UHGV virus genome: UHGV-0307316
DNA from: a virus
DNA: 64,000 bases
Strand: one strand, 5' to 3'
Position numbers and translations under genes: made by a program. Positions within the stretch are counted from its first letter, which is position 1, and each line of letters begins with the position of its first letter. A model generated the notes under the pieces. The model was not told the DNA's origin. It was given only the letters and a program-made list of their open reading frames with translations, and searched no databases. Shown piece after piece: positions 21,234-21,488 of this stretch.

Positions 21234-21388
21234 ATAAGATTTACACCGTCCATGCTTGCTCGCATTTTCGGTTTATCCCTCGTGTATTGTCGTACACTGA
21301 TAAAGCACCTAGTAGGTGTCACGGAGAAGAGATAATATCAAGCTCTCCAAAGGTTCTAGTCACCGGATTAAACAAGACTATGCAAAGA

Positions 21389-21409
21389 CCAAATTAGGTC
21401 TTTTTAGAG
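21389..21409 (+). terminator. rho-independent terminator inside tRNA array
   Basis: AAGACC-AAATTA-GGTCTT followed by TTTTT. Confidence 0.5.
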
Positions 21410-21488
21410 GGCTTCTAAGGTTATTACAGCTTGTTGTGGAACCTTGTTGCTTAGGTTCTTAGAAGTTCTCTAAAAAGATTTAATGGGA

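Follow-up and report, generated by a model that had tools for sequence, protein, structure and literature searches.

What occupies the 253 nt between tRNA-Ser(UGA) and tRNA-Leu(UAG) in the tRNA cluster of this phage genome, where the initial annotation had placed a candidate small RNA ending at an intrinsic terminator? The window, that is, the whole 64,000-nt stretch of DNA that was analysed (UHGV-0307316), resembles the Felix O1/wV8-type phages (subfamily Ounavirinae) at 94-100% identity; Felix O1-type phages are in wide use for the typing and biocontrol of Salmonella and E. coli. ARAGORN finds 26 tRNA genes in the window, all on the + strand between 18833 and 24396, and 25 of the 26 are also confirmed by Rfam. 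Both neighbours of the spacer, earlier described as merely tRNA-like, are ordinary tRNAs according to ARAGORN and Rfam. The features that make up the setting are as follows.

21142-21231, + strand: tRNA-Ser(UGA), the 5' neighbour (ARAGORN; Rfam tRNA model, 33.2 bits; sequence)
21232-21484, + strand: the whole structured spacer RNA element, 253 nt (254 phage records; fold energy; pair counts)
21485-21562, + strand: tRNA-Leu(UAG), the 3' neighbour (ARAGORN; Rfam tRNA model)
20175-20203, + strand: the nearest upstream sigma70-type promoter, TTGACA-17-TATAGT (promoter scan, 11/12 matches)
21203-21397, + strand: a spurious 64-aa ORF, named gp51 in wV8, gp45 in FO1a and phrog_36337 (sequence comparison)

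The spacer element is bounded on its 3' side by the 5' end of tRNA-Leu(UAG), the site of RNase P, and in wV8, Sf17 and Sf19 another tRNA-Leu allele begins at exactly the same junction. The end at 21410 that was first proposed does not hold, given that the structure continues to 21484. On the 5' side, the CCA of tRNA-Ser(UGA) is incompletely encoded, since the 3' end of the gene reads GCC-T. This end (21229-21235) contrasts with the encoded CCA at the other tRNA 3' ends of the repeat families; in one relative, L033, tRNA-Ser(UGA) ends in GCCA.

The promoter at 20175-20203 corresponds to P45 of the Felix O1 genome paper (PMC3185647) and is the likely source of the spacer transcript. Between this promoter and the element, the promoter scan returns a single weak 9/12 match, at 20601, and from the element to 22422, a stretch that includes eight tRNA genes, it returns no sigma70-like site. 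A sigma70 or MotA-type promoter was also sought inside the helix next to tRNA-Leu (P6, below), by scan and by reading of the sequence, and no acceptable -10 element was found there. The region around the promoter itself (20160-20640) reads as a consensus sigma70 promoter followed by conserved non-tRNA blocks at 20206-20248, 20327-20357 and 20542-20591; weak, sub-threshold Rfam matches to tmRNA models fall in this region, and a tRNA-Arg(UCU)-like gene at 20408-20486 was detected by Rfam and missed by ARAGORN.

The spacer is found in about 254 phage records, which belong to Felixounavirus, Suspvirus and Mooglevirus, plus a few mislabelled entries. Exact-match scans place it in 26 IMG/VR viral-contig stretches and 21 metagenome-contig stretches. 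The blastn search against phages, taken to an E value of 10, returned only Ounavirinae and mislabelled records; the IMG/VR exact scan and the Ro-like protein scan returned only relatives with at least 85% or at most 40% identity. E. coli genomes contain no match to the spacer, and the window contains no paralogue of it. With nhmmer and a covariance model built here (R1), no match was found in the T4 tRNA region, in five other Ro-like loci or in Yersinia phage P778, whose gene order is common with that of the window and whose Ro-like gene is 53% identical. Rfam (4227 models) reports nothing at its gathering thresholds, and over 266 nt at E values up to 10 only plant and animal miRNA hairpin models match, namely to P6, with 27.7 bits versus a threshold of 52. 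Neither ARAGORN nor the Rfam tRNA model detects a tRNA-like module in 21232-21484, and a T-arm (GGUUCGAAUCC-like) together with an acceptor-stem mimic is absent from the spacer, while a unit elsewhere in the cluster, at 19644-19775, has both. The spacer is a clade-restricted new RNA family, of a general kind that is known: the non-tRNA RNAs of phage tRNA operons. As a side observation on its distribution, the element occurs three times in contig CYGL01000008.1 (L071, L072, L080), twice in inverted orientation, and this contig is probably a chimeric assembly; in L071 and L080, CUUAAAGAUUUA precedes the element in place of tRNA-Ser.

The spacer has six helices, named P1 to P6 in this analysis. 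They are listed here with the associated P4b helix, the core and the apical motif of P6.

21245-21272, + strand: P1 hairpin, variable in sequence and conserved in structure (21 sequence versions)
21282-21297, + strand: P2 hairpin, GUGUA-UUGUCG-UACAC (pair counts)
21305-21319, + strand: P3 hairpin, GCACCU-AGU-AGGUGU (34/34 sequences pair)
21323-21348, + strand: P4 hairpin, GGAGA...UCUCC, with an inner GAU/AUC at 21331-21339 (pair counts)
21357-21380, + strand: P4b helix, UAGUC/GACUA, closing a conserved 14-nt loop ACCGGAUUAAACAA (covariation in L075)
21303-21384, + strand: near-invariant core of 82 nt with P3, P4 and P4b (identity across genera)
21384-21405, + strand: P5 hairpin, AAAGACC-AAAUUA-GGUCUUU, with a U-run, the earlier 'terminator' (fold energy; scan; pair counts)
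21394-21483, + strand: P6, a 27-bp helix of 21394-21420 with 21457-21483 (pair counts; covariation)
21444-21451, + strand: conserved apical motif UUGUUGCU of P6 (sequence versions compared)

The full 253-nt spacer folds at a minimum free energy of -70.3 kcal/mol (z -3.45), which none of 200 shuffles equals; a 181-nt part folded alone gives z = -2.29. Base pairs were counted on 34 distinct sequences, with 500 shuffles and slid helices as controls. With the full-P6 model, 98.6% of cells pair and six pairs have changed on both sides, and with the P5 model 99.7% of cells pair and five pairs have changed on both sides. None of the 500 shuffles reaches either result, and in the slid controls 36-52% of cells pair. 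When the + strand is read as the RNA, 99.9% of cells are paired, versus 89.1% if the - strand is; the difference is seen in 183 G-U cells, which become C-A mismatches on the opposite strand or in a DNA cruciform. Because these G-U pairs are many, the + strand can be identified as the functional strand. The helices are kept by compensatory or wobble changes on one strand only, which is the behaviour of a structured non-coding RNA.

Conservation of the sequence itself is concentrated in the core. The block 21303-21380 has 98.1% identity across eight genomes of other genera, and the identity of the core (21303-21384) per relative is 0.95-1.00, versus 0.91-1.00 for tRNA-Ser and 0.64-0.90 for the third codon positions of the neighbouring DUF7338 gene. 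The core is thus at least as conserved as the adjoining tRNA-Ser. The first hairpin region (P1), in lineages with a different version of it, has an identity to the window of just 0.23-0.41. Taken together, these results show that the spacer acts as RNA of the + strand and that purifying selection on it is strong, and shuffles, pair counts, strand bias and conserved core all agree with the earlier proposal of a non-coding structured RNA.

The individual helices vary to different degrees. For P1, all 21 sequence versions fold to a hairpin at the same position. P2 is the GTGTA/TACAC hairpin of the initial annotation and is present as claimed, 21282-21286 pairing with 21293-21297; two of its pairs vary, by wobble only, and L079 and L084 have lost an A-U pair from both arms. 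The sequence CACCTA-G-TAGGTG is likewise there (21306-21318); the hairpin drawn from it is not, as a loop of one nucleotide is impossible, and the stem is in fact GCACCU/AGGUGU, closed around AGU (21305-21319). This P3 helix is kept through G-U to A-U and A-U to G-U changes. For P4, the sole change in the stem is G-C to G-U, and the remaining variation lies in the apical loop. P3 and P4 are supported by wobble changes alone because the core hardly varies. P4b is where L075, the copy that diverges most (element at L075:4017-4268, in metagenome contig ERZ1027012 NODE-34), becomes informative: it turns UAGUC/GACUA (21357-61 with 21376-80) into UAGCC/GGCUA, a compensatory change from U-A to C-G. 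Three other pairings were tried and rejected. RNAalifold's alternative P4b pairing, UAGUC/GAUUA, is broken by the same compensatory change in L075; a long-range stem proposed by RNAalifold lacks covariation support; and the CCCUC/GAGGG closure from the single-sequence fold shows no covariation in the relatives when the alignment is read by eye.

Could the conserved region be a gene for a small protein? The 64-aa ORF that overlaps it lacks a ribosome binding site, and its first codon is a GTG that lies within tRNA-Ser; the earlier doubt about this ORF is borne out, as neither its start nor its frame is conserved. Start codons vary among the genomes (JLBYU28 and pEC-M719 offer none until only 5-8 codons remain), the 5' portion of the ORF switches frame between genomes, and where the P5 loop has gained or lost one or two bases the C-terminus is shifted. 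Substitutions in the core are non-synonymous in five of five cases, and it is only the constancy of the core that keeps the frame open. A Pfam search of the ORF gave no match, and phrog_36337 is merely the collection of these annotated ORFs. As a protein gene the ORF was ruled out, since it has neither the start, nor the ribosome binding site, nor the frame, nor the synonymous excess of one. Judged by sequence comparison, the small protein annotated in the spacer of public genomes is an error. In public records the region is either unannotated or a hypothetical protein, and an RNA at least as conserved as its tRNA neighbour corrects this annotation.

P6 stops 1 nt short of tRNA-Leu. Over its 27 bp, 97.3% of cells pair; both partners have changed in five pairs, and a single partner in seven. 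The base of the helix covaries from G-U to G-C and from U-A to U-G, and in L075 from U-A to G-C. L075 also rewrites the upper part of P6, where UAGAGGGCUUC/GAAGUUCUCUA becomes UAGAUGGCUAC/GUAGCCAUCUA with complementarity kept. At the apex, UUGUUGCU is invariant in 3/3 sequence versions of P6, though the surrounding stems change. The downstream hairpin CTTCTAAGG/CTTAGAAG that had been noted earlier is present at 21412-21420 with 21458-21465, and its resemblance to one other hairpin was seen correctly: the upper part of P6 and the hairpin of the Gln-His spacer have the arms CUUCUAAGG/CCUUAGAAG in common.

A second long stem was observed upstream in the cluster. At 19777-19920, roughly 23 bp enclose a branched domain of 100 nt directly before tRNA-Lys(UUU), and its 3' arm UCUACAAAGAUAAUUUAAU is nearly identical to that by which P6 adjoins tRNA-Leu; for the region 19640-19924 the fold gives z -4.9. 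Like P6, this stem sits between a non-tRNA RNA and a tRNA, a parallel that speaks for the processed spacer RNA proposed below.

Does the RNA end at P5, as first proposed? This would make it an independent sRNA of about 170 nt, of the Hfq type or the tRNA 3' external spacer type, with a 3' end formed by intrinsic termination at P5 and its U-run (about 21405). The AAGACC-AAATTA-GGTCTT sequence and its Ts do exist, at 21385-21405, about 4 nt upstream of the 21389-21409 originally given. Consistent with termination, P5 is kept in all copies, with wobble changes only at its three variable pairs; GGUCUUUUU is invariant except in one lineage; and in an RNA that ends at 21412, P5 belongs to the minimum-energy fold. 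However, P5 is a weak stem of 7 bp, including 3 G-C pairs, with -8.0 kcal/mol (z -2.19), and three of the five U of its U-run lie within the stem, leaving only 2 U beyond. A terminator scan that requires 5 T in 8 does not call P5, while the same scan finds a strong terminator at 24559-24576. The TransTerm/MFOLD list for Felix O1, whose entries range from -9.2 to -21.8 kcal/mol, does not contain P5, and no terminator is given in the Felix O1 genome paper between Felix O1 positions 23575 and 41180 (PMC3185647). A conserved U-rich tract directly after the stem, the mark of an intrinsic terminator, is missing: in L075 the U-run GGUCUUUUUAGAG becomes GGUCUUUGUAGAU (UUUGU), matched by an A-to-C change in the opposite, 3' arm of P6. 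Given that the U-run is lost in L075 and the base pairs of P6 are kept, it is the pairing, and not the U-tract, that is the conserved feature. Termination at P5 would also leave the eight tRNA genes downstream without a sigma70-like promoter of their own, and the HNH gene that sits directly after P6 in mistaenkt and PC79-13 likewise needs read-through.

P5 and P6 are moreover not independent: the nucleotides of the 3' arm of P5 serve again as the 5' strand at the base of P6, and the two are mutually exclusive. For the full spacer, the fold with P6 has -70.3 kcal/mol versus -68.2 kcal/mol for that with P5, and the pair probabilities are 0.94 versus 0.06. P5 and the P6 base compete for one invariant strand, and by these calculated energies P6 is favoured at equilibrium. 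More probably, the sequence read as a terminator supplies one strand to a long helix. An RNA bounded by an intrinsic terminator near 21405 is not supported, given the weak stem, a negative scan, the broken U-run of L075 and the stronger P6, and we regard the sRNA formed by termination as unlikely.

We find it reasonably probable instead that these 253 nt form a multi-hairpin domain of non-coding RNA within the phage tRNA operon, and that this domain is processed out to a stable small RNA with a partner. It would be co-transcribed with the tRNAs from host-type early promoters, the nearest being that at 20175-20203. The invariant GGUCUUUUUAGAG would first pair with AAAGACC as P5, and then re-pair into the 27-bp P6 once the sequence adjoining tRNA-Leu has been made. 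Excision may come about by tRNA processing, with 3' trimming of tRNA-Ser after 21231 and an RNase P cut at G21485. Judging by its length, P6 could also be a substrate of host RNase III, and a cut in it would part the upstream RNA from pre-tRNA-Leu. The product would be a stable small RNA, in which the core (P3, P4 and P4b) and the P6 loop UUGUUGCU may form a sequence-specific surface that binds a protein or RNA partner in trans.

RNase III cuts the stems of rRNA operons and sites in T7 early RNA. P6 is alike in being a long, imperfect, continuous helix of 27 bp that flanks a stable-RNA gene in a polycistronic precursor, and it exceeds the approximately two turns (at least 20 bp of dsRNA) of an RNase III substrate. 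It differs from such processing stems in carrying a conserved apical motif, which suggests that P6 has a role beyond processing.

The closest precedent is T4 RNAC/RNAD (the species 1 and 2 stable RNAs), to which the processed spacer RNA would be comparable. The T4 tRNA region yields two small RNAs whose role is unknown (PMC3014915). These are non-tRNA RNAs within a phage tRNA cluster and beside a homing endonuclease gene, as is the element described here, and they are co-transcribed with tRNAs, as it would be too. For the T4 tRNA-cluster small RNAs, decades have passed without a function. The differences are that RNAC/RNAD have no sequence or model similarity to the spacer, that they end in tRNA-like T-arm/acceptor sequences of which the spacer has none, and that T4 has nothing that corresponds to the 27-bp helix adjoining the next tRNA. 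Very few non-tRNA RNAs are on record for phage tRNA clusters, and the spacer joins them as a defined, testable family.

A second likeness is with 3'ETS-leuZ of E. coli, which Lalaouna et al. (2015, Mol Cell) reportedly described as a short trailer RNA of a tRNA operon that is bound by Hfq and acts as a sponge. Like 3'ETS-leuZ, the spacer would be a functional RNA that derives from the transcribed but non-tRNA part of a tRNA operon, a spacer or a trailer, and is released by tRNA processing. However, 3'ETS-leuZ ends at a true operon terminator, whereas the spacer is internal to its operon, has a doubtful terminator, and shows no complementary target in the window or in E. coli genomes. Antisense targets within the window, sought as 10-12-mers and by duplex energies, stay at chance level, as does the motif count for the P6 loop against AGCAACAA in unit B of the cluster.

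The core and P6 might go further than this and form an undescribed class of phage ncRNA with a specific role in trans, either as a second, non-tRNA-like partner of the Ro60-like protein, with the AAGACC/GGUCU helix in common with the Y-RNA-like units, or as a decoy or sensor by which the expression or the protection of the phage tRNA set is tuned in the course of infection; we hold this role to be doubtful.

Somewhat removed from this is the proposal that the spacer is itself a partner RNA of the phage Ro60-like protein, of the Y-RNA type and without a tRNA-like domain. The Ro-like gene (17252-18667) lies just upstream of the tRNA cluster and ends 2.6 kb upstream of the spacer; it encodes DUF2828, DUF7788 and vWA domains. 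Mycobacteriophage homologues of its product are annotated 'Ro-like RNA binding protein', and HHpred links a Listeria phage homologue to Rsr (PMC12282133). Sequence searches with the protein returned no match in PDB and no TROVE match in Pfam or NCBIfam. The same cluster holds four Y-RNA-like units, one of them with the YrlA layout, whose closing helix AAGACC/GGUCU is the same as that of P5, the natural variants GGCC and GACU being common to both. This helix and its variants are the only link of the spacer to a possible Ro-type RNP. Like the Y RNAs and YrlA (partners of Ro60/Rsr), the spacer is thus encoded near a Ro-like gene and has in common with the cluster units a short helix. Against a partner role, the spacer lacks the CAGCAA motif of the units, and it lacks the CGAA/GNCGAA motif of known Y RNAs (PMC4201824). 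It also differs from Y RNAs in having neither a stem that joins its 5' and 3' ends nor a tRNA-like module, and the Rfam Y_RNA and YrlA models do not match it. In Y RNAs the stem of the 5' and 3' ends carries the Ro-binding motif (GGUCCGA/GNCGAA); in the spacer an end-closing stem of this kind has to be forced, at -38.6 kcal/mol versus -46.6 kcal/mol for the best fold, which is 8 kcal/mol worse. Finally, the spacer element is missing from Yersinia phage P778, in which both the Ro-like gene and the units are present. On these sequence features, a Ro60-like partner of the Y-RNA type would be an improbable identity for the spacer.

The strong sequence conservation of the spacer would also fit a cis-acting sensor. 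As an attenuator or riboswitch-like leader, the core would sense a factor, decide whether P5 forms and so gate the distal tRNA genes. Such a leader would agree with a conserved multi-helix core placed directly before a hairpin and U-run, and with downstream genes that have no promoter of their own; the RNAalifold pairing of 21282-21294 with 21376-21388 would sequester the 5' arm of P5. Nevertheless, the terminator is weak, L075 loses the U-run but keeps the core, the long-range pairing has several bulges and no covariation, and no Rfam riboswitch matches. We know of no such control of tRNA genes, and we judge the leader very unlikely.

Least credible is a signal at the DNA level (an origin, a packaging signal, or a site for a homing endonuclease or a binding protein) or a gene for a small protein: HNH genes do insert nearby (20724-21128 in the window, close to the spacer, and after P6 in mistaenkt and PC79-13) and an ORF is annotated in several genomes to form phrog_36337, yet the 183 G-U cells are mismatched on the other strand and in a cruciform, the element occurs both with and without adjoining HNH genes, and the ORF has no conserved start, frame or synonymous pattern and no Pfam match.

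In mistaenkt and PC79-13 (L006 2950-3420; L008 2910-3380), the HNH endonuclease gene enters after the first 11 nt of tRNA-Leu, these 11 nt are duplicated, and the duplicated GGGAG appears to act as the HNH ribosome binding site.

The cluster around the spacer was found to be a mixed RNA operon beside a Ro60-like gene, and it contains Y-RNA-like units as well as UNCG hairpins and long stems. The four units have the form CAGAAGACC-NN-WUWCAGCAA...N'N'-GGUCUGG and lie at 19002-19074, 19168-19227, 19557-19630 and 19644-19775; they are also termed AGAAGACC units. Within the fourth (19644-19775) lies a tRNA-like module in circular permutation, whose arms are V, T, closed acceptor and D; YrlA Y RNAs have been described with this layout (PMC4201824), though the Rfam YrlA model does not match the unit. 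Yersinia phage P778 carries the same units (L038, about 10140-10215, 10344-10407 and 10785-10885) with different complementary stems, GGACUGU/ACAGUCC, GGAUUC/GAAUCC and GGACUC/GAGUCC. From their motifs and layout, the units are probably Y RNAs of a phage Ro-type RNP. We found no literature report of such Y RNAs in Felix O1-type phages, and the cluster offers a tractable E. coli/Salmonella system for phage Ro-type RNPs. The motif UUACAGCAA of the units (19173-19226 and others) weakly matches the Rfam model of Dictyostelium Class I RNA, with 24 bits versus a threshold of 41.5; that model likewise has a short terminal stem beside CCUUACAGCAA, and the match is probably a coincidence.

The two GTTCTTACGAG hairpins that the initial annotation compared with the one downstream of P5 are real (19521-19554 and 23284-23312), and the covariation check it suggested shows A-U to G-C and G-U to A-U changes between genomes. 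They are extended stems, UUCU-UACG-AGAG, with a UACG tetraloop that is UUCG in L075. They belong to a family of spacer hairpins capped by UNCG tetraloops, at 19521-19554, 20368-20402, 23284-23312 and, in P778, L038 about 10725-10750, with compensatory stem changes between genomes; the P778 hairpin is followed by six U and resembles a terminator. Processing stops and stability elements are both possibilities for these hairpins.

Other spacers of the two clusters also carry structure. The Thr-Val spacer (21893-21987) is conserved (block 21926-21998, 97%), and by eye nested stems GAGGUC...GACCUC and GCCGCUGGUGUCAAC...GUUGAGUUAGCGGC are possible in it around a unit-like GAAGACCGU motif. In the tRNA cluster of P778, the long spacers at L038 10970-11660 and 12141-12517 contain extra T-arm-like GGGUUCGAUUCCC and may be further tRNA-like RNAs, or interrupted tRNAs missed by ARAGORN.
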